Counted from the first letter of the stretch, positions 2,312 to 43,378 are shown. The stretch: 64,000 nt of DNA from a bacterium (GCA_035356975.1 DAORGW010000001.1:4951-68950), one strand, 5' to 3'. Numbers and translations: made by a program. The notes: generated by a model from the letters alone, not told the origin.

Positions 2312-3219
2312 GATTTTCCCTCCAATAATAAATGGTAAAGTATAGCCTTTCTTACTGTTATTCCCCCCTCTGCTTGTTGCCAGTAATAGGCATACGGGGT
2401 TTCATCTATTTCCCTGGGTATTTCCCCTCTTCGTGGCATTGGGTGGAGAATTTTTAGGTTTGGTTTTACGTTTTTGAGCATTTTTTGTTCAAGCACATAG
2501 AAACCTCTGACCTTGTTGTATTCATCTCCATCTGGTGGAAATCTTTCTTCTTGAATTCTGGTCATGTAACAAACATCAAGTACTTCTATAGCATCTTCAA
2601 TTTTTATGAGTTCTTCGAATTCAATACCCTGTTCTTGTAGATCCCTTATAAATGATTCTGGGATTTTTAAACTTGGTGGTGAAATGAGTTTGAATTTAGG
2701 ATTAAAAAATGACATTGACTTGATAAGCGAATGAACGGTTCTGCTGTATTTTAGATCGCCAACAAAACCTATTGTAAGATTTTCAAGTGTATTTTGAGTT
2801 TTTTTAATTGCATACATATCCAGCAATGCTTGTGTTGGGTGTTGATTAGATCCATCTCCACCATTTATGACTGGAACGTTAACTATTTCTGATGCAAGTC
2901 TCGCTAGGCCTTCTTCTGGCACTCTTAATACAATGAAATCCCCGTATATCCCCATTGTTTTAATAGAGTCATAGGCGCTTTCTCCTTTTTTGATAGAATT
3001 GTTTTCTGTTCCAGGAAAATCAATTGTTTGACCATTAAGTCTTTTAATGGCATATTCGAAAGATCCAAATGTTCTTGTAGATGGTTCTAAAAATGGCACA
3101 ACACCAATTTTTCCAGATAAGTCTGGTTTTAGTTTGCCGTTTTCAATTTTATGAGTAAGTTCAAGAATATGTAAAATATCTTCTTTACTTACATCGCTCA
3201 TTGAAATAAGATGTTTCAT
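2308..3219 (-). CDS. pyrB: Aspartate carbamoyltransferase catalytic subunit
   Basis: STRTR carbamoyl-phosphate binding motif (EPSTRTFGSFEYA) and an HPMP(R) motif. 303 aa. Confidence 0.9.
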   Translation of the reverse strand: MKHLISMSDVSKEDILHILELTHKIENGKLKPDLSGKIGVVPFLEPSTRTFGSFEYAIKRLNGQTIDFPGTENNSIKKGESAYDSIKTMGIYGDFIVLRVPEEGLARLASEIVNVPVINGGDGSNQHPTQALLDMYAIKKTQNTLENLTIGFVGDLKYSRTVHSLIKSMSFFNPKFKLISPPSLKIPESFIRDLQEQGIEFEELIKIEDAIEVLDVCYMTRIQEERFPPDGDEYNKVRGFYVLEQKMLKNVKPNLKILHPMPRRGEIPREIDETPYAYYWQQAEGGITVRKAILYHLLLEGKS

Positions 3220-3315
3220 TTTTCCTCCTTTTTGAAAAAAAGTTCCCCCCGGGAGCTTTTCTTTTTTGTTTATTTTCTGTTAAAAAGTATAACAGGTTTT
3301 AAATTTTTTGCAAAT

Positions 3316-4789: not shown

Positions 4790-6478
4790 TTACATTTTGT
4801 TAACAGTATTTATTCCAAGTAAATTTAATCCATTTTTAATTACTTGTGATACGCAGAATACTAGAGCAATTTTTGCTTTTGTAGAGTTTGTATCATTTGT
4901 TATTACTCTAATGTTATTATAAAACTCATTAAAATCTTTTGCTAGATCAATTAGATAATTTGCTACTATATTTGGTTTATAATTCTCTGCTGATTTTATA
5001 AGCACATCTTTAAAATTACTTAAATCTTTTATAATTTTTATTTCTGAGTCTTCTTTTAATAATTTATAATCAATATTTGTTTCGGGTTTTAATTTATATT
5101 CTTTTTTAGCTTTTTCCAAAATACTTAAACACCTTACATAAGTGTATTGTAAATATGGAGATGTGTCTCCATCAAATGCCAGTACCCTATTCCAGTTGAA
5201 AATTATATTTTTGTTTCTATCATTTGATAAATCAGCAAAAATTACAGCACCAAGTCCAATTTTTTTGGCTATTTCTTGATCATCTTTTGCAATTGATTTT
5301 TTGTCTGTCATTATTTTTTTTGCTAAATTGATAGATTTATTCAAAACATCTTCTAGAAATATTATATTTCCTTCACGAGTAGACATTGTGTTATCAGAAA
5401 AACTGAACATTCCAAAATTTACATGTATAAATTTATCTTTATTGAGTTTCATCAAATCTAAAACGGTGAATAATTGTTTAAAATGTAATTCTTGTTCACA
5501 CCCCACAACATATAAAATTTTGTAGGGTTTGTATTTTTTTAATCTATAAATTGCCGCAGATAAATCTCGCAAGTGATAAGAACTTGTTTCATTTGATTTT
5601 AGTAAGAAAAATGGTGGCATTTTAAATTTTTCTAGATCAACTATAAGAGCCCCTTCAGATATTTTTGTATCTAATGATTTTTTTGCTAATTTTAAAGTCT
5701 CTTCTAGATGAGAATTATAAAATGCTTCTCCATCATATGAATCAAATTTTATATTTAAAATTTTATAAATTTTTTTGAATTCTTCAAGAGATAACGATCT
5801 GAAGCTTTTCCATAATTCTAAATTTTTCTTATCATGCTTTTCTAGTTTTTGAAATTGATCGCGCGCCGCATCATCAAGTTTTGGATTTTGTTTTGATTCT
5901 TTGTGAAATTTTACATATAAATCTAGTAAATGTTTTATTGGTTCTTTTTTTAATTCCATAGAACTTCCCCATGTTTTATAAGCATAAATTAATTTTCCAA
6001 ATTGTGTTCCCCAGTCACCCAAATGATTTATACCAATAACCTTATATCCCAATGATTTATATATTTTGTATAATGAGTTTCCTATCACAGTGCTTCTTAA
6101 ATGTCCAATATTAAGTGGTTTTGCAATATTTGGAGATGAAAAATCTATTACAATGACTTTGTTTTTTCCAACACTCTGTTTTCCGAAATTATTTTTTTCT
6201 TTAAAAATTTCATTTATAATATTTTTTGAAATTGAACTATAATCAATAAAAAAATTTACATAAGGACCAATGGCTCTTATTTCTTTTACAAAATTTGGTT
6301 TTTTTATTTTTTTAACTAAATCGTTTGCAATTTCCTGAGCTGATTTATTTAATTTTTTTGATAATTCAAAACATGGAAAAGCATAGTCACCCAATTCTTG
6401 TTTTGGTGGAATTTCAATTTCTGGATTTTTAATTCCGATTGTTTTTGAAATTAAATCTTTTATTTTTTTTTCAAACAT
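4790..6478 (-). CDS. argS: Arginine--tRNA ligase
   Basis: Class I HIGH-type motif PLNIGHLRS, followed by GDWGTQFG, which is typical of ArgS. 562 aa. Confidence 0.85.
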   Translation of the reverse strand: MFEKKIKDLISKTIGIKNPEIEIPPKQELGDYAFPCFELSKKLNKSAQEIANDLVKKIKKPNFVKEIRAIGPYVNFFIDYSSISKNIINEIFKEKNNFGKQSVGKNKVIVIDFSSPNIAKPLNIGHLRSTVIGNSLYKIYKSLGYKVIGINHLGDWGTQFGKLIYAYKTWGSSMELKKEPIKHLLDLYVKFHKESKQNPKLDDAARDQFQKLEKHDKKNLELWKSFRSLSLEEFKKIYKILNIKFDSYDGEAFYNSHLEETLKLAKKSLDTKISEGALIVDLEKFKMPPFFLLKSNETSSYHLRDLSAAIYRLKKYKPYKILYVVGCEQELHFKQLFTVLDLMKLNKDKFIHVNFGMFSFSDNTMSTREGNIIFLEDVLNKSINLAKKIMTDKKSIAKDDQEIAKKIGLGAVIFADLSNDRNKNIIFNWNRVLAFDGDTSPYLQYTYVRCLSILEKAKKEYKLKPETNIDYKLLKEDSEIKIIKDLSNFKDVLIKSAENYKPNIVANYLIDLAKDFNEFYNNIRVITNDTNSTKAKIALVFCVSQVIKNGLNLLGINTVNKM

Positions 6479-6507
6479 ATTATTAAAATATTTTAGAATT
6501 TATAGTT

Positions 6508-8833: not shown

Positions 8834-9454
8834 TTAAAAGTCGGAACGTGCTTTTTTAAGGAAATTTTTATATTCAGGATCGCTTGTCATGAGTTCTTCT
8901 AATACTTGTCTTACATATTCTGCTTTGGCTTTTTTTTCTGCCATTGATTTCCATGTTAAATATCTTTCTATTTTTGGTGAAATTCTTAGGGTAAATTTTA
9001 CATTCACTTTTTCTTTTATAAGAGAACCAGACTCAAGTAAATTTAGGAAATCAGAAATAATATTTTGATAAGTTAATTTTTCTTTATCATTTTTTGAATA
9101 AAATTTTAAGAAAAAGTTTTCTCCTAAATTAGGATCTTTTCTTATGTATTCAAGTTGTTCCGGAATTATGTGACCTTTTTCCATTAGATATAGTAATGGT
9201 TTTTTATAGGCAAGAGCTGTTGCTATAACATAAACCGAGTCAGGAGAAATATTTGTTCCCTCAATTATTACAGCCTCTATTTGATCATAGCTTATGCTTT
9301 TTTTTGCTTCATTTTCCCCTCGCGAAATTTTTTTCTCCAAATTACTTACTAAATTGATTCCGTTTTTTATTAAAAATTTATGAATATCAACGTATCTACT
9401 TTCCCAGTATTTGTCGCTTAATTTATCCAAATTTGTAAAATAATATATTTTCAT
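8834..9454 (-). CDS. Hypothetical two-domain protein. The N-terminus is a Rossmann-like (NDT/YtoQ/SLOG-like?) domain and the C-terminus is a ribbon-helix-helix DNA-binding motif.
   Basis: C-terminal KFTLRISPKIERYLTWKSMAEKKAKAEYVRQVLEELM fits the RHH beta-strand plus helix pattern (CopG/Arc-like). The N-terminus (MKIYYF..., VIATALAYKKPLLYL) loosely resembles nucleoside 2-deoxyribosyltransferase-like folds but lacks the catalytic Glu. Confidence 0.35.
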   Translation of the reverse strand: MKIYYFTNLDKLSDKYWESRYVDIHKFLIKNGINLVSNLEKKISRGENEAKKSISYDQIEAVIIEGTNISPDSVYVIATALAYKKPLLYLMEKGHIIPEQLEYIRKDPNLGENFFLKFYSKNDKEKLTYQNIISDFLNLLESGSLIKEKVNVKFTLRISPKIERYLTWKSMAEKKAKAEYVRQVLEELMTSDPEYKNFLKKARSDF

Positions 9455-17596: not shown

Positions 17597-18613
17597 TTAT
17601 TTATACCAATTATACAATTCCTCGCTTTTAATATTTACTATGTTTTTAAATATATATTTTCTTTTTTGAAATATTTTTGAAATCAATTTTAAATTTTTAA
17701 AAAAGAAAGCAAGGGTTTTTGTCTCGAAAAATAATATATAAATAAATTTTTTAAATTCATAAATAAATAAATGAAAAAAACATTTTATAAAATTTGCGCA
17801 AAATTCATTTTTTATTAAAAGGTAAATATGATTTCTATATGAATATTCATTTACCCAAGAAGATCTATTTTTTCTATTTTTTATTGTATTTGTTCCCTTT
17901 TTTATAGATCTATCGTGATAAGCAATTACGTTTGGTAAAAAATAGCATTTATAGCCAGCTAGTTTCATACGAAATGCTAGATCAACATCTTCTTTGTAGG
18001 TAAAAAAATCTTCGTCAAAATATTCATTATTTATTTTTATGCTTTCAAGTGCCTTTTTAGAATATATGGGACACGCAGCTGATGTTCCAAAAACTTCTTT
18101 TACCTGATTGAATTCATTATTATTTTCTTCTAATTGTCCGATGTCTATAACTTTGTGATTTTTAAACACTTCAAATCCACAAGTATCAATTATATTTGTT
18201 TTCCCATATTTGTCTGCATTATATGGATCTTCATTATTAAATTCCCAATGAAATAATTTAGGAGCAATTACACCTATTTGATTTTTATTTTTATTATTAT
18301 CCAAGAAATTAAAAGCATTTTCTAAAAAATTAGGCTCCATTATTATATCTTGATTTAAGCACAATATATAATCAGATTTAGCCCAGGCAAATAATTTATT
18401 ATGAGCTGGTGCAAAGCCAATATTTTCTTTATTTTTAAATATTTTAAATTGCGGAAAGTTGTGTTCAATAATTTCAATTGTACTGTCATTTGAATTATTA
18501 TCAAAAATATTTACCTCATAATTTTTAAATGTTTGTTGTAATATAGAATTAATACAATGTTTAATGTATTTTTCTCCGTTCCACGTAACTAAATTTATGC
18601 TTATTCTAGACAT
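17597..18613 (-). CDS. Glycosyltransferase family 2
   Basis: ISINLVTWNGEKYIKHCINSILQQTFKNYEVNIFDNNSNDST. Confidence 0.8.
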   Translation of the reverse strand: MSRISINLVTWNGEKYIKHCINSILQQTFKNYEVNIFDNNSNDSTIEIIEHNFPQFKIFKNKENIGFAPAHNKLFAWAKSDYILCLNQDIIMEPNFLENAFNFLDNNKNKNQIGVIAPKLFHWEFNNEDPYNADKYGKTNIIDTCGFEVFKNHKVIDIGQLEENNNEFNQVKEVFGTSAACPIYSKKALESIKINNEYFDEDFFTYKEDVDLAFRMKLAGYKCYFLPNVIAYHDRSIKKGTNTIKNRKNRSSWVNEYSYRNHIYLLIKNEFCANFIKCFFHLFIYEFKKFIYILFFETKTLAFFFKNLKLISKIFQKRKYIFKNIVNIKSEELYNWYK

Positions 18614-18911
18614 ATAAATTTTTTATTTCTTCATAAAGATCTTTCCATTTAGGATTTTCTTTCCTAATTAGGCTAATTTTTTTCTCTCTTCTCCATCTTT
18701 TGATTTGTTTTTCTCTTTCTATCATCGCATATACATCGTTATCACTTTCAAAATATACTAATTTTTTGCATTTGTATTTTTGTGTAAATCCAGAAATTTT
18801 TCCAGATTTATGCTCTAATACTCTTCTAAAAATATCATTTGTGAAACCAACATACAATACTCCACTACGACTAGCCATAATATAAACAAAGTAATATTTT
18901 TCATACTTCAT
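18606..18911 (-). CDS. GIY-YIG nuclease superfamily protein (UPF0213-like)
   Basis: YFVYIMASRSGVLYVGFTNDIFRRVLEHKSG is the GIY-YIG motif. 101 aa. Overlaps the start of the GT2 gene by 8 bp. Confidence 0.8.
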   Translation of the reverse strand: MKYEKYYFVYIMASRSGVLYVGFTNDIFRRVLEHKSGKISGFTQKYKCKKLVYFESDNDVYAMIEREKQIKRWRREKKISLIRKENPKWKDLYEEIKNLYV

Positions 18912-18938
18912 AAATGCTTTTCTTATTTTTTATTCTTT

Positions 18939-19035
18939 GTCATTTCGACCGAATCCCGCATAGCGGGATGAGCGGAGAAATCTTGCTAGATCTCTCGACT
19001 CCGTCCCGATCAGCGGGACTGCGCTCGAGATGACA
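18939..19035. repeat. Hairpin-rich MITE-like element with TTGTCAT terminal inverted repeats (variant copy)
   Basis: tgtcatttcgaccgaatcccgcatagcgggat....cccgatcagcgggactgcgctcgagatgaca. The ends are an inverted repeat, and there are internal hairpins cccgc-ata-gcggg and cccg-atcag-cggg. Confidence 0.5.
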
Positions 19036-19038
19036 ATT

Positions 19039-20490
19039 TTATTTTATTTTATATTTTTCTATTATACAAATTAATAAAATTATAAATCCAAGTCCAAGTG
19101 GATGATCTAGATATGGTGAAAAAATATGAGTCACTAGTATGCTTATAAAAGAAAGTAATAATGAAATAAAAATTACATTATTACTATTTATCAATTTAAC
19201 AGAATCTTTGATTATTTTCAAGCTTAAAATTATATAAAATAATAGTCCAAAAATGCCTATTTTAAGCCAAAAATTGAGCCATCCCCACTCAAAGCTGTAA
19301 GTTGTAACTTGACCCGTGGGGTTGGTTTCGTTGAGATTTCTCGGATCTTTTGAGAAATATGTAATTTCATGAGCAAACCCATAGCCTAGTATAGGAGAAT
19401 TTTTTATATCACCTAACATAGGACTCAATAATTCCATTCTAGAATTACTACTTGCATCAGATTCACTAACTCTACCAGATAGCATATCAGCGAAATTTAT
19501 ATGAGTGTTTGGAATTTTTAATAAGATAAAAATAAAAACTACTGATGAAATTGTGATTACTAAAAATTTTAAATAATATTTTATAATATTTATAAATTTT
19601 TCTTTTTTGAAAATTAGTATTATAAATAAAATAAATAATGCACTAAAAATTCCAAGCCAAAAGCTTCTTGAGAAACTTATTATAATTGCACATAAATTTA
19701 AAATTAATAAGGTATAAAAAAATATTTTTTCATTTTTATTTAATTTTTGAAATATTAAAATTACGAAATTTATTATAAAAGCAATCATTAAATAGACTTG
19801 ACTCTGAAAAAATATACGATAAAAATGCTCATTCATTTTTGTAATTTCTCCTAGTCGCGTGTCACGAATCCACTTGTATAAAGTTGTAAAATCCAAGAAA
19901 TTAAAATGTTGAGAAAATAAATAAAAAGCAATTATTGTTTTAAGTGATAAAAAAAGTGTGGCAGAAATAAAAATATAAAATAAATTCATTAATACTTTTT
20001 TATCTTTTATAATTTGATAATAAATTGGAAGAATTAAGAAAAATATAAAATTATTTATATCTGAATATATATTTGAAATTTTTGTTTTATTAATTAGCGC
20101 AACAATTATTCCCAAAACAAGAATTAACATATAAAAAACATGAAACCACCTATAATTACTTTTTTTAAAATCAAATTTTTTGTTTTTTACAATATAAATT
20201 AATCCCGCAATAAATGAAATCAAGAAAATAAATATTCTAATTGATAGAGAGAATCCAAATAAATCAATACTTATTAATCTCCCAAAAGAACCAATAAATA
20301 ATTCTAAAAAACTAATGTAAATAATCCATTTTACATCGCGTGAAATTAGGTAAATTATTAAAATTGCAAGAAATGAAAATGCAATATAATTAAATATTGC
20401 AAATTCATGAGCAAAGAAAAAAATAACGTCTAATATTACAAGAGACAAAAATGTTACTGAAAAGCATTTATTTTTTAGAAAATTGAACAT
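19039..20490 (-). CDS. O-antigen ligase/polymerase-like polytopic membrane protein
   Basis: About 10 or more TM segments with a Wzy_C-like loop region (SFSRSFWLG). 483 aa. Sits in the glycosyltransferase cluster. Confidence 0.45.
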   Translation of the reverse strand: MFNFLKNKCFSVTFLSLVILDVIFFFAHEFAIFNYIAFSFLAILIIYLISRDVKWIIYISFLELFIGSFGRLISIDLFGFSLSIRIFIFLISFIAGLIYIVKNKKFDFKKSNYRWFHVFYMLILVLGIIVALINKTKISNIYSDINNFIFFLILPIYYQIIKDKKVLMNLFYIFISATLFLSLKTIIAFYLFSQHFNFLDFTTLYKWIRDTRLGEITKMNEHFYRIFFQSQVYLMIAFIINFVILIFQKLNKNEKIFFYTLLILNLCAIIISFSRSFWLGIFSALFILFIILIFKKEKFINIIKYYLKFLVITISSVVFIFILLKIPNTHINFADMLSGRVSESDASSNSRMELLSPMLGDIKNSPILGYGFAHEITYFSKDPRNLNETNPTGQVTTYSFEWGWLNFWLKIGIFGLLFYIILSLKIIKDSVKLINSNNVIFISLLLSFISILVTHIFSPYLDHPLGLGFIILLICIIEKYKIK

Positions 20491-21380
20491 TATAGATATT
20501 TCTTTTTTTTAGGTAATATGTGTAATTTTACACCGAGTATAACAAGTCTTACAATAAACCAATTTATTACAATAAAAAATCTTAAAATTAAAACTTGTAA
20601 TTTACTTTTATGTTTTTTAAAATATACTAGTAAACTATTATTAAAAGTTTTCTGATTTTTTAGGATTTTTTCTTGTTTAAAACTTTCACCTTTGTGATGT
20701 TTTATGCTTGTAATTGGCGTAAAAATTATGTCTAATCCATGTTTTCTTATTCTTGTACATAAATCAACTTCTTCAAATAAAAGCCAGTAATCCTCGTCTA
20801 ATAATCCGCCAACACTCTCTATTACTTTTTTGCTCGTTAATAAAAATGCACCCATAACTTGATCAACTTTTTTCTCACTATTATAGTCAAAATCTAACAT
20901 ATAATATTTTCTTATTGCAGGAATTAATCGTGGAAAAAAATTGTGTAATTTTAAAAGAATAAAAATTTGTGATGATAAAGTTGGTAATCTTCTACATGAT
21001 GGTTGAAGTGTAGAGTCACTATTTAATAATTTACATGCAATTGCTCCAATATTTTCGTGCGAGTCAAAAATTTCAATTAATTCTTTAAGTGAATCAAATT
21101 CAATAAATTCTGTATCAGGATTTAGAAGTAAAATGTGATCGTATTTTGATAGTTTATAGCCTATATTATTTGCTTTTGCAAAGCCAAGATTTCCGCCCGA
21201 TGGAATATATCTAGCCTGTGGATATTTTGATTTCACCATTTCCTCGCTTCCGTCATTTGAATCATTATCAACTACAATAACGTCTAAATCAATATTTTTG
21301 TTAAATTCAAAAAGCGAAGATAATGTTTTATCAAGCAAATCTTTTACTTTGTAATTTACGATTATGATTGAGATTGACAT
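20490..21380 (-). CDS. Glycosyltransferase family 2
   Basis: ISIIIVNYKVKDLL...DVIVVDNDSNDGS. Confidence 0.8.
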   Translation of the reverse strand: MSISIIIVNYKVKDLLDKTLSSLFEFNKNIDLDVIVVDNDSNDGSEEMVKSKYPQARYIPSGGNLGFAKANNIGYKLSKYDHILLLNPDTEFIEFDSLKELIEIFDSHENIGAIACKLLNSDSTLQPSCRRLPTLSSQIFILLKLHNFFPRLIPAIRKYYMLDFDYNSEKKVDQVMGAFLLTSKKVIESVGGLLDEDYWLLFEEVDLCTRIRKHGLDIIFTPITSIKHHKGESFKQEKILKNQKTFNNSLLVYFKKHKSKLQVLILRFFIVINWFIVRLVILGVKLHILPKKKKYL

Positions 21381-21381
21381 G

Positions 21382-21639
21382 CTAATTAAATTTACACCCT
21401 TCTTTTCTTAAAATTTCAATTTTTTTCATCTCTCCCCTGTTATATCCGCCAATTTTTCCATCAGATCTTATTACTCTATGACATGGAATTTTTGGATCAT
21501 AATTTTTATTTAAAATATTGCCTACAGCTCGGTAGGCTCGAGGCTTACCGACTGCAATAGCGACTTCTTTGTAAGTCATTACTTCTCCTTTTGGAATCTT
21601 GGAAACAATTTTATATACTTCTTCAGAAAATTTGGACAT
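21382..21639 (-). CDS. Methylated-DNA--protein-cysteine methyltransferase (MGMT/Ogt) DNA-binding domain protein
   Basis: IPCHRVIRSDGKIGGY contains the PCHRV active-site Cys motif. 85 aa. Confidence 0.8.
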   Translation of the reverse strand: MSKFSEEVYKIVSKIPKGEVMTYKEVAIAVGKPRAYRAVGNILNKNYDPKIPCHRVIRSDGKIGGYNRGEMKKIEILRKEGCKFN

Positions 21640-22635
21640 TTAAATTTTTTGACATAGTTCTATCATTCTATTTGAAAAACCCCATTCATTGTCATACCAA
21701 GAAACAAGTTTTATTAAATTTCCATCCATTACATTTGTAAGTGATAAGTCCAAAATTGATGAATGTGGGTTTCCTATTATATCGCATGATACAACTGGAT
21801 CGTTTGTTGTCATTAAAATTCCTTTGAATTTTTTATCTTTTGAGCATTTCACAAACAATTCATTGATTTGTTCTACTGTAACTTTTTCTTTTAATTTTAT
21901 TGTTATATCTGATAGCGATCCATCAACAACAGGAACTCTGATTGCAAATCCATCAAATTTTCCTTTTAATTTTGGAATGGCACGGGTTACAGCAATTGCT
22001 GCTCCAGTTGAAGTTGGAATAATATTCATGGCAGCAGCGCGGGCTCTTCTTAGGTCGCTGTGTGGGCCATCCATGAGGTTTTGATCTGCAGTGTAAGCAT
22101 GAACTGTAGTCATAAGAGCTTTTTCTACTTCGAAATTATCACTAATTATTTTCATAACTGGTGCAATACAATTTGTTGTGCACGACGCTAAATCATAAAC
22201 ATTTGTAGATTTTTTAATTTTTTCTTCATTTACGCCTAAAACTACTGTTTCTACATTTTCACCTTTTGCAGGAGCAGAAATTATAACTTTTTTGGCCCCT
22301 GCCTTCATATGCTTTTGTGCATCTTCATAAGTTCTAAAAATTCCAGTACATTCTAAAACTACATCAACTTTTAAATCTTTCCAAGGTAATAATGTTGGAT
22401 CTTTTTGAGCATATACTGGATATGCAATTCCATCAACTACAATTCCATTTTTATTGGCTGTTACCTTATTCTCGATTCTTTTTTGAGCACTGTCATATTT
22501 TAGTAAGTGTGCTAGAGTAGCTGAATCAGCTAAATCATTAATTGCAACAACTTCAACATCTTTTTTTGTAAGTGCTACTCTAAATGCCATACGGCCAATA
22601 CGACCGAAACCATTTATTGCGATACGTTTTTTCAT
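21640..22635 (-). CDS. gap: Glyceraldehyde-3-phosphate dehydrogenase
   Basis: INGFGRIGR Rossmann motif and the SCTTNCIAP catalytic Cys motif. Confidence 0.9.
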   Translation of the reverse strand: MKKRIAINGFGRIGRMAFRVALTKKDVEVVAINDLADSATLAHLLKYDSAQKRIENKVTANKNGIVVDGIAYPVYAQKDPTLLPWKDLKVDVVLECTGIFRTYEDAQKHMKAGAKKVIISAPAKGENVETVVLGVNEEKIKKSTNVYDLASCTTNCIAPVMKIISDNFEVEKALMTTVHAYTADQNLMDGPHSDLRRARAAAMNIIPTSTGAAIAVTRAIPKLKGKFDGFAIRVPVVDGSLSDITIKLKEKVTVEQINELFVKCSKDKKFKGILMTTNDPVVSCDIIGNPHSSILDLSLTNVMDGNLIKLVSWYDNEWGFSNRMIELCQKI

Positions 22636-22696
22636 ATTTTTTTATTATTAATTATTTATTAATTTAGAAAAATTTTTGCTTTATTAGCTATTAAAC

Positions 22697-22790
22697 AATT
22701 TTGTCATTCTGAACTTGATTCAGAATCTCAAAATTGTTTTGTGTTCTGGATTCCGGATCAAGTCCGGAATGACAAAGAGCAAAAATTTCT
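22697..22790. repeat. MITE-like inverted-repeat element, copy A
   Basis: ttttgtcattctgaacttgattcagaatctcaaaattgttttgtgttctggattccggatcaagtccggaatgac. Two hairpins (ttctgaa/ttcagaa and ttccgga/tccggaa) and TGTCATT/AATGACA termini. Near-identical to the copy at 24279-24374. Confidence 0.6.
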
Positions 22791-22792
22791 AT

Positions 22793-23578
22793 TTATTTTT
22801 TTACTTTTAAATCATTAAAGACGCCTCTTTTGTCTAATTCATCGTAATATCCACGTGGATCATGTAATAAAACCCTTGTTATTATTCCGTTTATATTATG
22901 TGTTTTTTGTTTTTGTATATTTTTACGTCCAAAAAACATAATAAAGACAAGTATTGGAATCATAATTAACATAAAAATTATTGCAGTAAAATCTTTAAAC
23001 AACACTGCAAATACTAAAAACATTATTACGATTATCAATGGTCCAAATAGTGTCCATGTTAATATTTCTTTTTTATTAAATTCTAATGTTCCCCATTCTT
23101 TTATTGTTGTTTTATTATCTAATATTTTTTTTATTAAATTAGTTGGTAAATAGCCAAATATTGAACTATAGTATGGTTTACCGTTTATAAAAGTAACATT
23201 TGCTTTTGTTAATGGATCAAATTTTTCAAAAATTAAACTTCTATAGTAATGAAATGGATCTGTAACAAAAGAATTAAAATCATATATTTCTATTTGTTTC
23301 CCATTGTAAGTTCCTTTTATAATATTTTTCTTTTGTGAAAAATCTAACTTTCTAAATTTCTTTTTTTCATCTTCTAGAAGCTGTAAATTATATTTTTTTG
23401 CAAATTTTTTTATTTCTTTTTTTCTAGAAAAAAGTTTTGAGATATTCCAAGCTATAATAACTATTAATGCAATTATACATATTATTAATAGCCAAAAAGA
23501 AGAGCCATTTGTAAATATTTCTTCTTTTATGATATCTAAAAAACCTTTTATATCACCCCAAAAACTATAATCTTCCAT
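22793..23578 (-). CDS. Membrane protein, hypothetical
   Basis: N- and C-terminal TM segments. 261 aa. Confidence 0.4.
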   Translation of the reverse strand: MEDYSFWGDIKGFLDIIKEEIFTNGSSFWLLIICIIALIVIIAWNISKLFSRKKEIKKFAKKYNLQLLEDEKKKFRKLDFSQKKNIIKGTYNGKQIEIYDFNSFVTDPFHYYRSLIFEKFDPLTKANVTFINGKPYYSSIFGYLPTNLIKKILDNKTTIKEWGTLEFNKKEILTWTLFGPLIIVIMFLVFAVLFKDFTAIIFMLIMIPILVFIMFFGRKNIQKQKTHNINGIITRVLLHDPRGYYDELDKRGVFNDLKVKK

Positions 23579-23589
23579 ATTTTTAAAAA

Positions 23590-24246
23590 TTATTTTATTA
23601 AATTAACTTTTTGAATCTTTTTATAATATAAGATAAATAATATGCCTCCTATTAATGTTATTAATGAAAGAATTATAAATATTGGTTCTTGTATGGACTT
23701 AATTCCATTTCCAATATAGGCCAAGCTTAAACTTCCGCTTACTTGTCCTATAATCACTAATGTTAAGAAAATTTTTGGAGAAATTTTTGAAAAACCAGCA
23801 AGATATGATATCTCGTCATCTGGAAATAAGGGTAAAAAGTAAGCTAAAAATATTAATAATTTTCCTTTTTCAAAGAAATAGTCATATTTTTCAATGGTTT
23901 CTGTTTTAATAACCCTTTTTATTATTTTTCTACAAAATATTCTTCCTAAATAAAATGCAATTGCCGTTCCCATCACTCTACCAATAAAATTATAAATAAA
24001 ACCCCACCAAAGTCCAAAAATAAATCCACCCGCAATTGATATTGTATAATGGCTAATCGGAGTAATTACTACTTGCAATATTTGAATCAAAATAAATATT
24101 ATTGGTGCAAAAATACCAAATTGATTTATAAAAGTTCTAATTGATTCTTGGTTAGAAAAGAATTTAATAGGAAAAATATAACCAAGTATTAATAAAATAA
24201 TGGGAATGAATGTTAGTAAATACCAAAATAATTTATTTTTTTTCAT
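23590..24246 (-). CDS. TVP38/TMEM64 (DedA-related) family membrane protein
   Basis: GGFIFGLWWGFIYNFIGRVMGTAIAFYLGR is the SNARE-associated/DedA-type motif. Confidence 0.6.
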   Translation of the reverse strand: MKKNKLFWYLLTFIPIILLILGYIFPIKFFSNQESIRTFINQFGIFAPIIFILIQILQVVITPISHYTISIAGGFIFGLWWGFIYNFIGRVMGTAIAFYLGRIFCRKIIKRVIKTETIEKYDYFFEKGKLLIFLAYFLPLFPDDEISYLAGFSKISPKIFLTLVIIGQVSGSLSLAYIGNGIKSIQEPIFIILSLITLIGGILFILYYKKIQKVNLIK

Positions 24247-24278
24247 TCTACTTTCTTGGAAATTTTTGCTCTTTTAGT

Positions 24279-24374
24279 CTTCAAACTATTTTGTCATTCT
24301 GAACTTGATTCAGAATCTCAAAATTGTTTTGTGTTCTGGATTCCGGATCAAGTCCGGAATGACGGGGTGCAAAA
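24279..24374. repeat. MITE-like inverted-repeat element, copy B
   Basis: Identical core to copy A over about 80 bp. The flanking gcaaaaattt is also shared. Confidence 0.6.
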
Positions 24375-24378
24375 ATTT

Positions 24379-24924
24379 TTATTTTATTAAAGTATATCCA
24401 AGTTCAAGCGCTTTTTCATTTAAAATTTTCAAATTCGGATTTTTTATATATTTATCTTCAAAAACATGATTTATTGAATTTTTTGCATCGCTCAAATTTA
24501 TAAAATCTTTTATTGTTTTCATAATTGCGCCAAGTACTAACATGTTCATAACACGCTGAGAGCCAATTTCTTTTGAAAGTGTATCAAATGCAAAACCATG
24601 TGAATTTTTTATTTTTTTAATATCTGGATCATTTATCAAATCAGTATTATAAATTACAATAGAATCTTTGTTGATATAATCATTTGCACGTTTAAAAGCA
24701 CGTTCTGATAAAATTACCATAATATCTGCTTTTAGAAATTTTGGATAATAAATAATTTCATTTCCGAATTGAATATACCCCATAGATACTCCCCCACGTT
24801 GTTCTACTCCGTAATTTGGTACAAAGCTTATGTGAAAATCTTTATTATTTAAAATATCCAATAAAATTTTACTAAGTGATTGAACTCCTTGACCGCCCTC
24901 ACCCGCTATTAATATTTTTTTCAT
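24379..24924 (-). CDS. 2-oxoacid:ferredoxin oxidoreductase, gamma subunit
   Basis: N-terminus KILIAGEGGQGVQSL is the PorC/KorC-type start. 181 aa. Confidence 0.8.
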   Translation of the reverse strand: MKKILIAGEGGQGVQSLSKILLDILNNKDFHISFVPNYGVEQRGGVSMGYIQFGNEIIYYPKFLKADIMVILSERAFKRANDYINKDSIVIYNTDLINDPDIKKIKNSHGFAFDTLSKEIGSQRVMNMLVLGAIMKTIKDFINLSDAKNSINHVFEDKYIKNPNLKILNEKALELGYTLIK

Positions 24925-28439: not shown

Positions 28440-28556
28440 TGTTAATTTATTATTTATTATTTTCAATTTATAATTGATTTATTATTTGGCTATTTTTAAT
28501 TCAATAGTAAATTATTAAATAGTAAATGAATTGAAAATTGCAAAATAGTAAATTGA
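28440..28556. repeat. AT-rich ~115-bp intergenic repeat element (family 2), copy 1. Contains three AATAGTAAAT motifs.
   Basis: About 75% identical to the reverse complement of 36396-36510. Shared blocks: aatttattatt, attgatttNNtatttggctattt, aatagtaaat. Confidence 0.5.
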
Positions 28557-32125: not shown

Positions 32126-33001
32126 TCAATTTTTATATTCTGTATAATAATTTTCTCCGTCTGATTTTATTATAATATTTCCCAGCTCATCATTTCTTAA
32201 AATTTTTGAGCCATTTTTTATAATTCTATCAAGTGCTTCTTTATGTGGATGTCCAAATTTATTATCAGATCCAGATTGAATTATTGTAATTTCTGGCTTT
32301 ATTGTATTTAATAAATTGTCACAATTTGAATATTTTGAGCCATGGTGAGATGCTTTAAAAATTTCTGATTTTAAATTCGTATTATCTTTTAAAATTATAT
32401 TTTCAATTTCACACGATGCATCTCCATTAAAAATAGCATCAAAATTTTTGTAAGTTAATTTTATTGAAACACTTGCATCATTTAAATTTTCTACTGTTTT
32501 TGTTTTTGGCATATAAATAATAGACAAATATAAATTTTCATCAATTTCATATCTGTCTCCTAGTTTTGGTTTTGTAATTTCTAAATTATAATCATTTATA
32601 ATTTTTTTCATATAATTATAATCAGATAAATTAACATCAATCCCTGAATAAATTATTTTTTGAGTTTTGTATTTTTTAATTATGGGAATTAGCCCATAAT
32701 AATGATCTTTATGTGGATGGGTAATAATTATTAAATCAATTTTATTATTTCTATAAGCTATGAATTTGTTTATTTTTTCTGGTAAATCTGAGTCGGGTCC
32801 ACCATCAATTAAAATATTTTTTCCGGTTTGAGTTTTTATTAAAATCGCGTCACCTTGACCAACATCAATGAAAATAATATTTAATAATTTGTCATTTTTT
32901 TCGTATGTATAATAAAATCCTAAAATCAAAACTATAATTATTATAAAAATTATTTTTTTAGTCATATTGTTTTTTAGATTTTTTAAAAACAAAATAAACA
33001 A
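32126..33001 (-). CDS. comEC: ComEC C-terminal metallo-beta-lactamase domain protein
   Basis: DVGQGDAILIKT and HPHKDH (HxHxDH). Overlaps the upstream competence-domain ORF by 44 nt in a different frame. Confidence 0.7.
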   Translation of the reverse strand: MFILFLKNLKNNMTKKIIFIIIIVLILGFYYTYEKNDKLLNIIFIDVGQGDAILIKTQTGKNILIDGGPDSDLPEKINKFIAYRNNKIDLIIITHPHKDHYYGLIPIIKKYKTQKIIYSGIDVNLSDYNYMKKIINDYNLEITKPKLGDRYEIDENLYLSIIYMPKTKTVENLNDASVSIKLTYKNFDAIFNGDASCEIENIILKDNTNLKSEIFKASHHGSKYSNCDNLLNTIKPEITIIQSGSDNKFGHPHKEALDRIIKNGSKILRNDELGNIIIKSDGENYYTEYKN

Positions 33002-34427
33002 TCACAACATATGAAAAAAACATAAAAAGCAATGAAAAATTATTTATCGAAATACTCGCAAAAGTTATTTTTGATAATTCATTTGCTGTTTTTATCATTA
33101 ATTGTAAATTTGCATAATTAAAAAATCCAATTATTTTGGCAAAATCTAAATTTATATAAGAAAAAACAACAGCAAAAAACGAAACCAACATATTAATTGA
33201 AATAAGTGGCAAAATTAAAAGATTTGATATAGGAGAAATAATTGATAATTGTTTGAATTGATAAATCAAAATTGGTGTGGTTGTAATTATTGCAGAAATA
33301 CTTGATGTAAGCGATGAGCGGATTTCAAGTGATTCTGGTAAAAATTCGAAATATTTTTCTATAAGTGGACTTATATAAATTAATCCATAAGTTGCAAAAA
33401 AACTAAGTTGAAATCCCACGTCATAGAAAATTGTATATGGGTTTATCATAGCAATTATAAATGTGCTGTATGATAAAAGTAGTGAATTTTTCATTATTTT
33501 TCCAATGTTTTGAGAAAACATAAGGATTATTGCCATAATTGCTGCTCTTATTGTCGAAGCACCGAGTCCTGATAAAAACACGAATCCAATTACAATAAAG
33601 CAAATTATTATAAATGATTTTTTTCTGTTTACCCCAGCTGATATAAGTAAATTTAAACAAACCAGGGAAATTATACTTACATGCATTCCAGAGACAACAA
33701 TTATGTGACTTATTCCAATTCTTTTGAAGTCGTTTTTTATTCCTTCTGACACGATATTTTTTCCAAATAATAATCCGTTTATAAAAGATGAATATGGCTC
33801 GGGCCAAATTGAATCAGAGTGGTCAAATAAATTTTTTCTAAGTTTATAAATTAAACCTATGATTTTGTTTCCATTGTTGTGTGATATAATCTCTATATTT
33901 CTCGATGAACAAATTGAATAAATGTTTTGTTTCATTAGGTATTTGTCATAAGAAAAGTTTTCAATTTTTTCGGGGCGCTTCAGCTCACAATCAAAGACTA
34001 TTTCATCCCCGTAATTATATTGTGGATATAAATCTGTTGTTACAAGTAGGTTTCCAGAGATTTCTTTGTTTTCCTCAATAATTGCCTTTGTTTCTATGGT
34101 TAATTTTTGATAATTGATTCTTTCATCTGGAAGCGCCCCCACAACGCCTTTTATTTTTAAAAATTTCCCAGTATAAAACCAGATTTTTGTGTTATCATTT
34201 CTTTCAATTTTTAAAACATTAGTTCTATAAAATCCAAGAATTAAAAAAATAAATATTAAAAAAATAATACTTATTTTAAATTTATTTAAAGTTACAAATA
34301 ATACAAAAAATAGTATTATTGCATATATAAGATAGTTTTTTTCAATTGAAATATTAGAAAAACATGAAATCGCGATTCCAATTAGAAATGTAATGCAGAG
34401 TATTATATTTTTTAATGTTTTGTTCAT
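32958..34427 (-). CDS. comEC: ComEC/Rec2 competence membrane channel domain protein
   Basis: GISHIIVVSGMHVSII is the competence-domain motif. Polytopic. Confidence 0.7.
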   Translation of the reverse strand: MNKTLKNIILCITFLIGIAISCFSNISIEKNYLIYAIILFFVLFVTLNKFKISIIFLIFIFLILGFYRTNVLKIERNDNTKIWFYTGKFLKIKGVVGALPDERINYQKLTIETKAIIEENKEISGNLLVTTDLYPQYNYGDEIVFDCELKRPEKIENFSYDKYLMKQNIYSICSSRNIEIISHNNGNKIIGLIYKLRKNLFDHSDSIWPEPYSSFINGLLFGKNIVSEGIKNDFKRIGISHIIVVSGMHVSIISLVCLNLLISAGVNRKKSFIIICFIVIGFVFLSGLGASTIRAAIMAIILMFSQNIGKIMKNSLLLSYSTFIIAMINPYTIFYDVGFQLSFFATYGLIYISPLIEKYFEFLPESLEIRSSLTSSISAIITTTPILIYQFKQLSIISPISNLLILPLISINMLVSFFAVVFSYINLDFAKIIGFFNYANLQLMIKTANELSKITFASISINNFSLLFMFFSYVVIVYFVFKKSKKQYD

Positions 34428-36395: not shown

Positions 36396-36510
36396 ACCAT
36401 TTTCTATTTTCAATTTCCAATTGATTTACTATTTATAAATTTTTCAATTGTAAATAAATAATAAATAGCCAAATAGAAAATCAATTCAAAATAAAAAATA
36501 ATAAATTGAA
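36396..36510. repeat. AT-rich ~115-bp intergenic repeat element (family 2), copy 2, in inverted orientation
   Basis: Its reverse complement aligns at about 75% identity with 28445-28556. It abuts the hydrogenase stop codon. Confidence 0.5.
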
Positions 36511-36512
36511 AA

Positions 36513-38207
36513 TTATAGACTGCATTTGGATTTATCAGAATACTTTGTGTGCAATAATTTTTTTGATAATTTTCCAAGTGGTTTTCCCAAAAATTCCATG
36601 TAAATTTTTATAATATTTGGGTTTTTATGGGCTTGTCTGAATTCCAAAGATTTATCTTCTTCATAAGTTGCTTTTGCTCTTTTTCGTATTATTTCCATGG
36701 TTGTTGGCTTTGGTTGTCCTCCACCACCTATGCATCCCCCTGGACATGCCATAATTTCGATAAAATGATACTTTTTAGGCATTTTCTTTATGATTTCAAG
36801 TATTTTACGGGCATTTGATAAACTGTGTATTACAGCTAAATTTAGGGTTGTATTTCCGATTTTTATACTTGCTTCTCTGAATCCTGAATCACCTCTTAAA
36901 ATTTTAAAATCTATCTTTGAATATTCTCTGCCAGTCATAAAATAATGAGCTGTTCTTATGGCTGATTCCATAACTCCGCCAGATGAGGCAAAAATTGCTC
37001 CTCCACCAGAACCCGGCCCCATTGGATTATCAAATTGTAATTTCCTTTCATCTTTTAGATCAATTCCAAAACTTTTTATGAGTTTCGCGCACTCTCTTGT
37101 TGTTATTACAAAATCAACATCACGGACTCCGTCAACCGACATTTCATCACGACATGATTCATATTTTTTTGCTGTGCATGGCATTATACTTACTAGTATA
37201 ATATCGCGTGGATTAATTTTTGCTTTTTGTGCATAATAAGTTTTTATTAGTGCACCAAACATTTGGTGGGGTGACTTACAGCTTGATAAGTGATTTAATA
37301 ATTCAGGATAAAATGTTTCAATAAAATTGACCCAGCCAGGACAGCATGATGTTATAAGTGGCAAATATTTATTTTGTTTGATTCTCTCAATTAATTCACT
37401 GGCTTCTTCCATTATTGTAAGATCAGCTCCGAAATTTGTATCAAAAACTTTTTTAAAGCCAGCCTTTTTAAGTGCGCCTACCATTTGTCCGGTTACGGAA
37501 ATCCCAGGCTCTAATCCGAATTCTTCTCCCAGTGCAACTCTAATTGAGGGAGCGGTTTGTGCTATTACATGTTTCTTTGGATCTTTTAATAATTCTTTAA
37601 TTTCTTTATAGAATTCTTTTTCCCTGATTGCATTTGTTGGACAAACTAGTGAACACTGACCACAACCAACACAGTTTGTGTCAGCCAATTTTTTATTTAA
37701 TGATTTTGAAACAACGGTTGCGTTAGCTCTGTTTTTATAAGAAATTGCATTTACTGTTTGAAGTTCCCTACATTTTTGTATGCATCTTCCACATAAAATA
37801 CATTTTTCAAAATCCATTACAATATCATGAGAAGAGTCGTCTAATTCTTCTGAAATATGTGGTTTAAATTTTAATTCCTCAATGTCTGGTAAATTTTCTA
37901 ATTTTAACCATTTTCTAAATTCTTCTTCTTTTTCAAAATTACATCCTATTAATTGAGCATTTATTTTTCTTTGTTTCTGTATCTCAGGATTATTTGTCTC
38001 AATTATCATGCCCTCACAAATTTCGTTATTACAACTCGTTATAAATTTTCCGTTAGCCATAACTACACATATGCCACATCTCCCCTCTGACCTTAGATCT
38101 GGATGGTAACAAAGAGTGGGAATTTTTATTCCACTTTTTAGAGCCGCTTCAAGTATCGTGCATTTTTTATTTATTTTTATTTTTTTACCGTCAATCGTTA
38201 TTTGCAT
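36513..38207 (-). CDS. [FeFe]-hydrogenase catalytic subunit (HndD/HydA-like) with N-terminal 2Fe-2S and 4Fe-4S domains
   Basis: H-cluster motifs TSCCPGW, MPCTAKKYE and EIMACPGGCIGGGGQP. Confidence 0.85.
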   Translation of the reverse strand: MQITIDGKKIKINKKCTILEAALKSGIKIPTLCYHPDLRSEGRCGICVVMANGKFITSCNNEICEGMIIETNNPEIQKQRKINAQLIGCNFEKEEEFRKWLKLENLPDIEELKFKPHISEELDDSSHDIVMDFEKCILCGRCIQKCRELQTVNAISYKNRANATVVSKSLNKKLADTNCVGCGQCSLVCPTNAIREKEFYKEIKELLKDPKKHVIAQTAPSIRVALGEEFGLEPGISVTGQMVGALKKAGFKKVFDTNFGADLTIMEEASELIERIKQNKYLPLITSCCPGWVNFIETFYPELLNHLSSCKSPHQMFGALIKTYYAQKAKINPRDIILVSIMPCTAKKYESCRDEMSVDGVRDVDFVITTRECAKLIKSFGIDLKDERKLQFDNPMGPGSGGGAIFASSGGVMESAIRTAHYFMTGREYSKIDFKILRGDSGFREASIKIGNTTLNLAVIHSLSNARKILEIIKKMPKKYHFIEIMACPGGCIGGGGQPKPTTMEIIRKRAKATYEEDKSLEFRQAHKNPNIIKIYMEFLGKPLGKLSKKLLHTKYSDKSKCSL

Positions 38208-42493: not shown

Positions 42494-43378
42494 TTACCAA
42501 CCACCAGATGCACCTCCTCCTCCAGATCTTCCGCCACCAAAGCCTCCAAAACCACCTCCGAATCCACCTCCAGATCTTCCGCCACCCAAGAACCAAAATC
42601 CACCACCAGTTCCAGGTTTACCATTATTTTTTGAAACAGCATAATCAAATAATAGTCCTAGTATTGTTAAAATTATAGTAATTATTGTTCCTATTAATAA
42701 AGTACCAATTATTAATCCAATTATTGCGCCCAGTATCCCACCAATTACACCACCCAGCCAAAACGATTTTGTTTTACCAAGTAATCTAGCGAAAATATTA
42801 AGAAAAAAAATGAATATAGCAATAAAGAAAGATATGGTATTTTCTGTTATTTTTGAGTTTACTTTTGTTTGTGATGTTAGTTCTATTCCTTGTGTTGAGG
42901 AAATTATTTGATCAACGGCTTTATCTATGCCGCCATAATAATTATTGTTTCTAAATTCTGGCTTCATGGTTTCATCTATTATCCAAAAAGATTGCGCATC
43001 TGTTAAATACCCCTCCATTCCATAGCCGGTTTCAATTCTTATTTTTCTATCCTCTATTGAAATTAGAAGCAAAACTCCATTATCATTATTTTTTTTACCT
43101 ATTTTCCAGTCTTCAAATAATTTTACAGCAAAATTTTCTATTGTATCGCCCTCTAGACTTTGAATTATTACTACACTAATTTCATTTGTTGTTTGTTTTT
43201 CAAAATCAGATAATTTTTGCTCTAAAGATTGTTTTTCTTGTGTGGTTAATGTATTTGTATAGTCATTAACAAACCCAGTTGGATTTCCTGGGTTTTGATA
43301 TGCATGTGTCTTATTAAAAATTATCAAAATAAAGATACACAAAAAATATATATTTATTTTGAAAACATTTTTTATCAT
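42494..43378 (-). CDS. TPM-domain (YgcG-like) membrane protein with a Gly-rich C-terminus
   Basis: TPM phosphatase-like fold region (VNDYTNTLTTQEKQSLEQKL...VLLLISIEDRKIRIETGYG), a TM segment, then GGGFGGGFGGFGGG. Confidence 0.7.
   Translation of the reverse strand: MIKNVFKINIYFLCIFILIIFNKTHAYQNPGNPTGFVNDYTNTLTTQEKQSLEQKLSDFEKQTTNEISVVIIQSLEGDTIENFAVKLFEDWKIGKKNNDNGVLLLISIEDRKIRIETGYGMEGYLTDAQSFWIIDETMKPEFRNNNYYGGIDKAVDQIISSTQGIELTSQTKVNSKITENTISFFIAIFIFFLNIFARLLGKTKSFWLGGVIGGILGAIIGLIIGTLLIGTIITIILTILGLLFDYAVSKNNGKPGTGGGFWFLGGGRSGGGFGGGFGGFGGGRSGGGGASGGW

Follow-up and report, generated by a model that had tools for sequence, protein, structure and literature searches.

Chenal et al. (Nat Commun 2025; PMC11893778) described the Neisseria repeat dRS3 as part of a longer oriented motif, NTS (CGTCATTCCCGCGMAVGCGGGAATCYRG), and found NTS-like "Ssn-related motifs" (SRMs) flanking homologs of NMV_0044 (ssnA) across phyla. 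SsnA, a 94-aa single-domain GIY-YIG protein of the cd10448 family, binds the hairpin in single-stranded DNA (ssDNA) only, on one strand only, and cuts a few nucleotides upstream of the motif (PMC11893778). The three bases 5' of the palindrome mainly govern cleavage, the C right after the palindrome is most crucial for binding, and a changed palindrome abolishes activity; DNA of the form NTS-gene-NTS transforms N. meningitidis less well with SsnA present (PMC11893778). Characterisation of Ssn and NTS has so far been confined to Neisseria and a few other Pseudomonadota; the biological role outside Neisseria and the suggestion that NTS-ssnA-NTS behaves as a mobile element were left open. Here we describe three intergenic palindromic elements, A, B and C, and a neighbouring GIY-YIG nuclease gene, ssn, in a 64-kb stretch of bacterial DNA with 27% GC (GCA_035356975.1 DAORGW010000001.1:4951-68950; hereafter the window, positions being counted from its first letter). 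The elements are very probably SRMs like the NTS/dRS3 of Neisseria, with the adjacent gene encoding their Ssn-family partner nuclease and with A and B as putative recombination-prone units.

The locus most closely resembles the SsnA system of N. meningitidis (PMC11893778). The two share the module architecture with near-identical flanks, (C/T)GTCATTC...GAATC(YRG), a ~100-aa single-domain GIY-YIG partner with conserved catalytic residues, a motif beside the gene, intergenic motifs that bracket membrane-protein genes and the presence of a DNA-uptake gene. They differ in that the window modules are fixed inverted pairs enclosed in a larger unit bounded by a further, outer inverted repeat, and in that the host is a 27%-GC Patescibacteria-type metagenome-assembled genome, a group unmentioned in PMC11893778; the window lies on a 102-kb metagenome contig (ERZ795044 NODE_42), and close homologs of window proteins are labelled Patescibacteria in public records. 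The dRS3-based NIME arrays and minimal mobile elements of Neisseria (PMC1797815) have in common with the window inverted hairpins around a short spacer (dRS3-RS-dRS3; 21 nt in the window), repeats beside variable, often surface-related genes, and neighbouring slots that hold different cassettes in each relative, for example DpnII restriction-modification genes in L229, one of the relatives compared below. Unlike these, the window has single units in place of long arrays, and the strict consensus ATTCCC-N8-GGGAAT gives way to ATTCCGGA-N5-TCCGGAAT or ATTCTGAA-N5-TTCAGAAT; NIME arrays were stated to be unobserved outside Neisseria (PMC1797815). A further parallel, drawn by the Ssn paper itself (PMC11893778), is to REP/BIME repeats and their RAYT (IS200/IS605-like Y1) transposases, likewise short palindromic intergenic repeats recognised as single-stranded hairpins, with a small domesticated-looking nuclease gene flanked by its own repeats; the enzyme there is an HUH tyrosine transposase and not a GIY-YIG hydrolytic nuclease, and Ssn is not known to have strand-transfer activity.

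All genes from 16.7 to 28.4 kb of the window lie on the minus strand, and in each of the three elements between them two hairpin modules, of the form GTCAT-palindrome-C, are paired in inverted orientation (Table 1). Elements A and B are direct repeats (22670-22794 / 24260-24384, 125 nt, 90% identity in a repeat search) with an identical 71-nt core between the terminal GTCAT/ATGAC motifs and flanking arms of only ~70% identity. In each, an outer inverted repeat ((G)AAATTTTTGC / GCAAAAATTT(C)) encloses a forward module (TGTCATTCTGAACTTGATTCAGAATC) and a reverse module, reading (C/T)GTCATTCCGGACTTGATCCGGAATCCAG on the complement strand, with a spacer of 21 nt between them. The two modules are variants of each other with compensatory stem changes (TGAA/TTCA vs CGGA/TCCG), and they form two perfect 8-bp hairpins in each copy, ATTCTGAA-CTTGA-TTCAGAAT and ATTCCGGA-TCAAG-TCCGGAAT. 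An earlier reading of the window (the original prediction) had correctly described a near-identical pair with inverted termini and two internal perfect hairpins; its extents, 22697-22790 and 24279-24374, become 22667-22789 and 24259-24379 with the outer inverted repeat, which it did not mention, and the right terminus of B is GAATGACG and not GAATGACA. The right arm of B abuts the stop codon of the OFOR gamma subunit gene with a 1-nt overlap.

Element C shares the termini TTGTCAT...ATGACAA with A and B and, as predicted, has a different, GC-rich interior, its modules (GTCATTTCGACCGA[ATCCCGC-ATA-GCGGGAT]GAGCGGAGAAATC and an inverted partner) each containing a nested GC hairpin. It is placed 2 nt past the stop codon of the Wzy_C gene and, the genes being on the minus strand, on the 5' (upstream) side of ssn, 25 nt from the start codon, which corrects the earlier placement of the element downstream of the GIY-YIG gene. 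By itself the heptamer TTGTCAT shows no enrichment in the window (19 found vs 17.07 expected), so the signal is the whole module and not its terminus. A generic detector (GTC + 5-7-nt arm + complement + C) is likewise not enriched there (15 vs 13.0 expected in shuffles) and is thus unusable in the 27%-GC window for counting extra copies; the same detector is specific in the GC-richer homolog loci described below.

Table 1. Features of the window, with positions counted from its first letter
Feature	Position	Strand	Description
ssn	18606-18911	-	101-aa single-domain GIY-YIG protein; Pfam GIY-YIG E 3e-13
Element C	18937-19036		Inverted SRM-type module pair with nested GC-rich hairpins; modules 18939-18982 (+), 18989-19034 (-)
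gap (GAPDH)	21640-22635	-	Identified by Pfam; conserved, bordering the insertion site
Unit A	22667-22789		Between the stop of the 261-aa open reading frame and gap; SRM modules 22703-22727 (+), 22749-22773 (-)
Unit A, outer inverted-repeat arms	22667-22679 and 22779-22789
Cassette gene 1	22793-23578	-	261-aa predicted membrane protein
Cassette gene 2	23590-24246	-	218-aa VTT/DedA-TVP38-type membrane protein; Pfam VTT_dom E 4.7e-27
Unit B	24259-24379		Architecture as unit A; SRM modules 24293-24317 (+), 24339-24363 (-)
OFOR gamma subunit	24379-24924	-	Pfam POR E 1.6e-29; conserved, bordering the insertion site opposite gap
ComEC-type DNA-uptake channel	32126-34427	-	Pfam Competence E 1.7e-49, with DUF4131 and Lactamase_B E 2.9e-16

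Comparison with NTS reveals the same determinants in the window. The right module of B with its flanks (24336-24364, minus strand; CGTCATTCCGGACTTGATCCGGAATCCAG) equals the NTS consensus except in the inner stem and loop, being identical at CGTCATTCC...GGAATC and in the CAG tail. When the gonococcal NTS, the NTS copies beside two homolog genes and the window modules are aligned, GTCATTC and GAATC are invariant. The GTC 5' of the palindrome, the hairpin-forming palindrome and the C directly 3' of it are present in 6/6 window modules, all of which retain GTC, a perfect palindrome start and the trailing C.

The elements fold with energies of -41 to -58 kcal/mol, far better than shuffled sequences on both strands (z -6.2 to -8.6; 0/200 shuffles as good), element C reaching z -7.1 on the plus and -8.6 on the minus strand. 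Pairing is maintained across A, B and the units of two relatives, L221 and L223: with 26 proposed pairs in four units, all 104 cells pair, and compensatory changes occur in 5 pairs, compared with 0 when the partners are slid, in what is a small sample of four sequences. Folds of this stability (z -6 to -8.6), compensatory changes that keep the hairpins paired, the position of A, B and C directly after stop codons in a co-directional gene array, and an outer arm of A that ends in a T5 run in the gene orientation could all be expected of terminators, attenuators or REP-like 3'-end stabilisers acting in a polycistronic transcript. We consider such an RNA-level role highly improbable. Rfam searches, run with gathering and with permissive thresholds, returned nothing beyond tRNAs and microRNA-like hairpin noise below threshold; a scan for terminators flagged none of A, B and C, its two calls in the region falling elsewhere; three relatives have no element at all at the OFOR-gamma/gap junction; and both the invariant, strand-asymmetric GTC and C flanks and the tight link to a DNA nuclease gene would be left unexplained. 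SsnA does not bind RNA (PMC11893778); the conserved, asymmetric GTC...C flanks belong to a DNA motif not bound in RNA form by the characterised nuclease, and the structured intergenic RNA offered by the original prediction is unsupported. A side effect of the units on transcripts is possible.

The nuclease gene supplies the second line of evidence. Pfam GIY-YIG spans residues 6-78 of the ssn protein, with no further domain. The protein is 42% identical to the 94-aa gonococcal SsnA ortholog (65% positives, E 3e-26, BLASTP), which was used for the comparison in place of the N. meningitidis 8013 protein; this gonococcal open reading frame has Y6, Y17 and E64 as in the paper, and canonical NTS copies around it. 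These three are the residues mutated in SsnA (PMC11893778). They align with Y10/Y20/E67 of the window protein, which are invariant across 15 homologs. A tblastn search of PLSDB (7.3 Gb) retrieves two N. gonorrhoeae chromosomes filed as plasmids (E 2e-16; NZ_CP119140.1 is one of them), and the window protein falls within the SsnA homology threshold of the paper, tblastn E < 1e-10. The neighbouring GIY-YIG gene thus encodes an Ssn-family nuclease, the partner of a motif class described in 2025, a link that had been missed in the original prediction. The only relatives in the PDB are UPF0213 proteins (E 2.5e-6), consistent with a different subfamily. A Slx1/UPF0213-type structure-specific nuclease was considered and dropped after the direct comparison with SsnA. 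NCBIfam and PADLOC returned no match for ssn. Relatives of the protein number 3381 at E <= 1e-5, many on contigs < 1.5 kb. On IMG/VR contigs (L230-L287), which may be phage or host fragments alike, 45 encode Ssn-protein relatives, seven of them at 50-56% identity, and 13 carry an exact 25-mer of the A/B modules.

The association between gene and motif extends well beyond the window. Eighty homolog loci in named genomes were examined, with 49-64% identity over the best-matching segment; the genomes include Saccharibacteria, Acidobacteriota, Burkholderiaceae, Chloroflexota and Omnitrophota. Taken literally, the published SRM search pattern, HGTCWYN(0-2)YYVSBRHN(0-5)WNVSBRGN(0-2)RNCYNB, matches 15/80 of these loci vs 15/400 shuffled loci. 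In the ten loci matched on both sides with a + strand match upstream and a - strand match downstream, these lie at -39 to -88 and at +7 to +64, respectively. A structure-aware detector applied to 77 loci from many phyla finds a forward module within 200 nt upstream in 38, a reverse module within 200 nt downstream in 43 and both in 34; the corresponding counts are 3, 5 and 1 of 140 decoy positions and 4, 3 and 0 of 385 shuffles. Many of the remaining homolog loci hold long nested hairpins resembling element C. At L003, L004 (Berkelbacteria CP011213) and L008 the gene is flanked by modules of the form GTCATTCC...GGAATC or AGATCTCTCGAC...CTCGAGATGACA. Taken together, the motif comparison, the protein homology and the gene association identify the elements as SRM pairs and the gene as an Ssn-family nuclease gene.

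Some of these homologs occupy unusual positions. At L008 an oxidase operon contains the ssn homolog (3001-3291), with COX2 and COX1 on either side of it, and at L004 the SRM (3250-3291) encodes the last ssn codons (WKDLSTSLEMT*). Two homologs, P0102 and P0107, have ~28-residue N-terminal extensions that may reflect start codons called inside upstream repeat DNA.

Modules also occur apart from the gene. The exact A/B 25-mer is present on at least 120 metagenome contigs of 26-62% GC; among the matches listed, a second module in inverted orientation, in many cases the canonical GGATTCCCGCTTTCGCGGGAATGAC, usually lies 10-40 nt away. A search for ssn in these module-bearing loci (at least 120) found no ssn gene beside the 25-mer, so the modules are dispersed away from the gene. 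On three metagenome contigs, repeats bearing the 25-mer stand in inverted orientation around 1-4-kb segments: at L029 (9751-9936 and 10932-11117) the segment codes for a sortase-like 238-aa protein with a TLVTC motif, at L051 (7938-8040 and 12223-12325) it holds repeat-rich, surface-protein-like genes, and at L067 the repeats lie at 6454-6494 and 9305-9345. A bigger conserved element, tagtgtactgt...ctttac...[SRM pair]...gtaaagaag, occurs in L045, L053, L060, L068, L075, L086, L090 and L124; its recurrence in many unrelated contigs indicates that SRM pairs are embedded in bigger MITE-like (miniature inverted-repeat transposable element-like) repeats in other lineages too.

Units A and B bracket exactly two genes, as the original prediction stated, and the cassette that these form separates gap from the OFOR gamma subunit gene. 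Seven syntenic loci were obtained through OFOR-gamma homologs (75-87% identity), and gap adjoins OFOR-gamma in L218, L219, L221, L223, L225, L227 and L229. The junction is empty, at 17-22 nt, in L218 (OFOR-gamma 87%), L219 (83%) and L227 (79%); it is filled by a 113-nt unrelated AT-rich palindrome in L225 (84%), and by one homologous unit in L221 (79%) and L223 (77%). The L221/L223 unit has the outer inverted repeat of A and B, two inverted modules and both gene junctions conserved. In the window the same junction reads unit B, two genes, unit A. The cassette is found there in the window only (0/6 close relatives), and the junction never carries it, with or without repeats, in the relatives compared. 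With six relatives showing OFOR-gamma followed by gap, with or without one unit, the bracketed cassette is truly an insertion, as had been suspected. Similarly, ssn and element C are missing from the Wzy_C/glycosyltransferase junction in L219, L227 and L229, where the two genes overlap. Unit, nuclease gene and cassette are thus each an insertion/deletion polymorphism among close relatives; the elements are inferred to be mobile.

The cassette itself gives little indication of its source. For the 261-aa protein the only match among 5.8 billion sequences is an identical copy, and there is no curated Pfam, NCBIfam or PADLOC match, so the origin of the cassette is not traceable through homologs of this protein; neither cassette gene matches NCBIfam or PADLOC. 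The GC content of the cassette is 20-25%, compared with 29-36% for gap and OFOR, and glycosyltransferase genes are as low as the cassette, so this composition is not evidence of foreign origin.

Presence or absence at one intergenic site among close relatives is also what a classical MITE would produce, and the ~122-nt unit is small and palindromic with an outer 10-16-bp inverted repeat that A, B, L221 and L223 all retain; very short contigs carry many of the ssn homologs, as is usual for repeats. Read in this way, the unit would be a non-autonomous transposon, dependent on a transposase encoded elsewhere that binds the outer inverted repeat (GAAATTTTTGC), and the cassette would lie between two independent insertions or within a composite. 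Correia-type bacterial MITEs resemble it in size (~100-150 nt), in their terminal inverted repeats, in their intergenic location and in their presence/absence between strains. We regard this explanation as unlikely. Comparison of filled and empty junctions yields no unambiguous target-site duplication, the flanks being AT-rich, and identical cores combined with diverged, cross-matching arms in A and B would not result from two independent transpositions. The most conserved part of the unit is not its outer arms but the inner GTCAT...ATC modules, which are common across phyla and nuclease-partnered; unlike in Correia-type MITEs, the conserved core is a nuclease recognition hairpin and not the termini, and neither a target-site duplication nor a cognate transposase is identified. 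No transposase was seen near the window elements, no whole-genome transposase search having been made, and none was noticed near the module-bearing metagenome loci (at least 120), which were scanned for ssn only and not for transposases. The MITE family of the original prediction is supported as a dispersed family of palindromic repeats; a classical, transposase-driven MITE is not supported.

A possible route of arrival for the cassette can be read from the arms of A and B. For the left arm of A the best pairing partner is B's right arm (16 bp, perfect), and for B's left arm it is A's right arm (12 bp), compared with 11 and 10 bp for the within-copy pairings; an identical core with cross-matching arms is the outcome expected of a single crossover in the core between a resident unit and an incoming cassette-bearing unit. 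In this model the ~122-nt unit, composed of the outer inverted repeat and the SRM pair, would be a recombination-prone intergenic element, and a lone resident unit between OFOR-gamma and gap would have served as the entry point for the cassette of the VTT and orphan membrane-protein genes. Arrival would most simply have occurred by a single crossover with circular DNA bearing the cassette and a unit, leaving hybrid direct repeats, and recombination between A and B would reverse the integration and restore the single-unit state of L221 and L223. The predicted Ssn cut sites lie in the linkers, where A and B differ. Bentley et al. 2007 made a similar proposal for chromosomal dRS3 arrays, into which they suggested genes flanked by arrays could be inserted (PMC1797815). 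Other routes of arrival are possible, such as allelic replacement by transformation.

Ssn itself, by analogy with the characterised enzymes, would bind the hairpin in ssDNA only, on the GTCAT...ATC strand, and would cut a few nucleotides 5' of the motif. Since the modules of a unit lie one on each strand, either strand, once single-stranded, would have a cleavable site on each side of the cassette. The region may become single-stranded on import through ComEC or when exposed in replication or repair. ComEC is the expected entry route of ssDNA into the cell, and its being encoded in the window makes imported ssDNA a plausible substrate; the gene is split into two overlapping open reading frames (32126-33001 and 32958-34427, with DUF4131 and Competence domains and a metallo-beta-lactamase domain). 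As in N. meningitidis, cleavage at the units would modulate, and probably reduce, replacement or loss of the cassette via incoming homologous ssDNA, and a role of Ssn and SRM in transformation of this host is suggested by the same analogy.

A more far-reaching variant treats the SRM-pair units as attachment sites of gene-cassette capture, at which circular or linear DNA with a cassette and one unit would recombine with a resident unit. The crossover would be started by Ssn nicks in the linkers outside the hairpin pair, giving integron-like integration and excision that also spreads ssn between phyla, and the system would not be solely an ssDNA restriction device. We judge this variant unlikely.

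Several observations weigh against identifying the window as a working Ssn/SRM locus with recombination-prone units. The published SRM pattern gives 0 hits in the 64-kb window, and both A modules (identical to those of B) and both C modules, tested singly, fail to fit it (0/4), with the script accepting two NTS sequences as a control. The pattern fixes the inner-stem composition and allows short loops only, and it fails on the window because the inner stems (GGAC/TCC, GAAC/TTC), which differ from those of the SsnA system as do the loops, and the nested hairpins of C exceed its composition and length limits. No module follows the ssn stop codon, which overlaps the next gene, so the SRM pair is upstream only, unlike in the SsnA system and in the commonest layout, SRM-ssn-SRM. 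Only six modules (three pairs), all intergenic, are visible in the window, and the A/B-specific spacer has 0 hits in a genome collection of species representatives that does not include the source genome. The palindromes of A and B differ from that of the ssn-adjacent C and a palindrome change kills SsnA activity, so the window enzyme may not act on A and B. The crossover model is thinly based, drawing on a few bases of arm complementarity. Finally, the function of the Patescibacteria-type Ssn in the window is proposed by analogy.

The Ssn/SRM system is already known, and the window adds a Patescibacteria-type instance, with a clear Ssn and SRM pair in an ultra-small, AT-rich genome that has a ComEC channel. 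What is new is evidence from relatives for insertion polymorphism of SRM units, of the ssn gene and of a cassette bracketed by SRMs. One site offers a natural series of empty, one-unit and unit-cassette-unit states, accompanied by presence or absence of ssn inside an operon, and such a series is the type of evidence needed to test hairpins as recombination or insertion sites. As the published pattern misses AT-rich and long-hairpin variants, pattern-based surveys would undercount the system.

Adjoining the insertion site, the slot between gap and the first glycosyltransferase gene (window 21382-21639) is a hypervariable cassette site. It holds an 85-aa MGMT-like DNA_binding_1 protein in the window, an AAA-type kinase in L218 and L219, open reading frames of unknown kind in L221 and L227, an N6/N4 methylase and DpnII in L229, and nothing in L223 and L225. 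Other repeats occupy intergenic positions in the window and its relatives. Paired GC-rich intergenic hairpins of the type ATTTCCGCCAAAGGCGGATCCGCCTCCGGCGGAAAT form another family in relatives (L221 6680-6720; L229 ~895-935; L223 ~5030-5075). An unrelated AT-rich palindromic intergenic repeat is present at 28443-28544 and 36407-36515 of the window, with arms of up to 85 nt that are 73-86% complementary, and similar AT-rich inverted-repeat elements occupy several intergenic gaps in L225. A tandem-like CCTCC/CCACC-rich repeat at 42515-42610, with 48-nt copies 63-77% identical to a reference copy, is, at a guess, a Gly-rich coding stretch on the minus strand.

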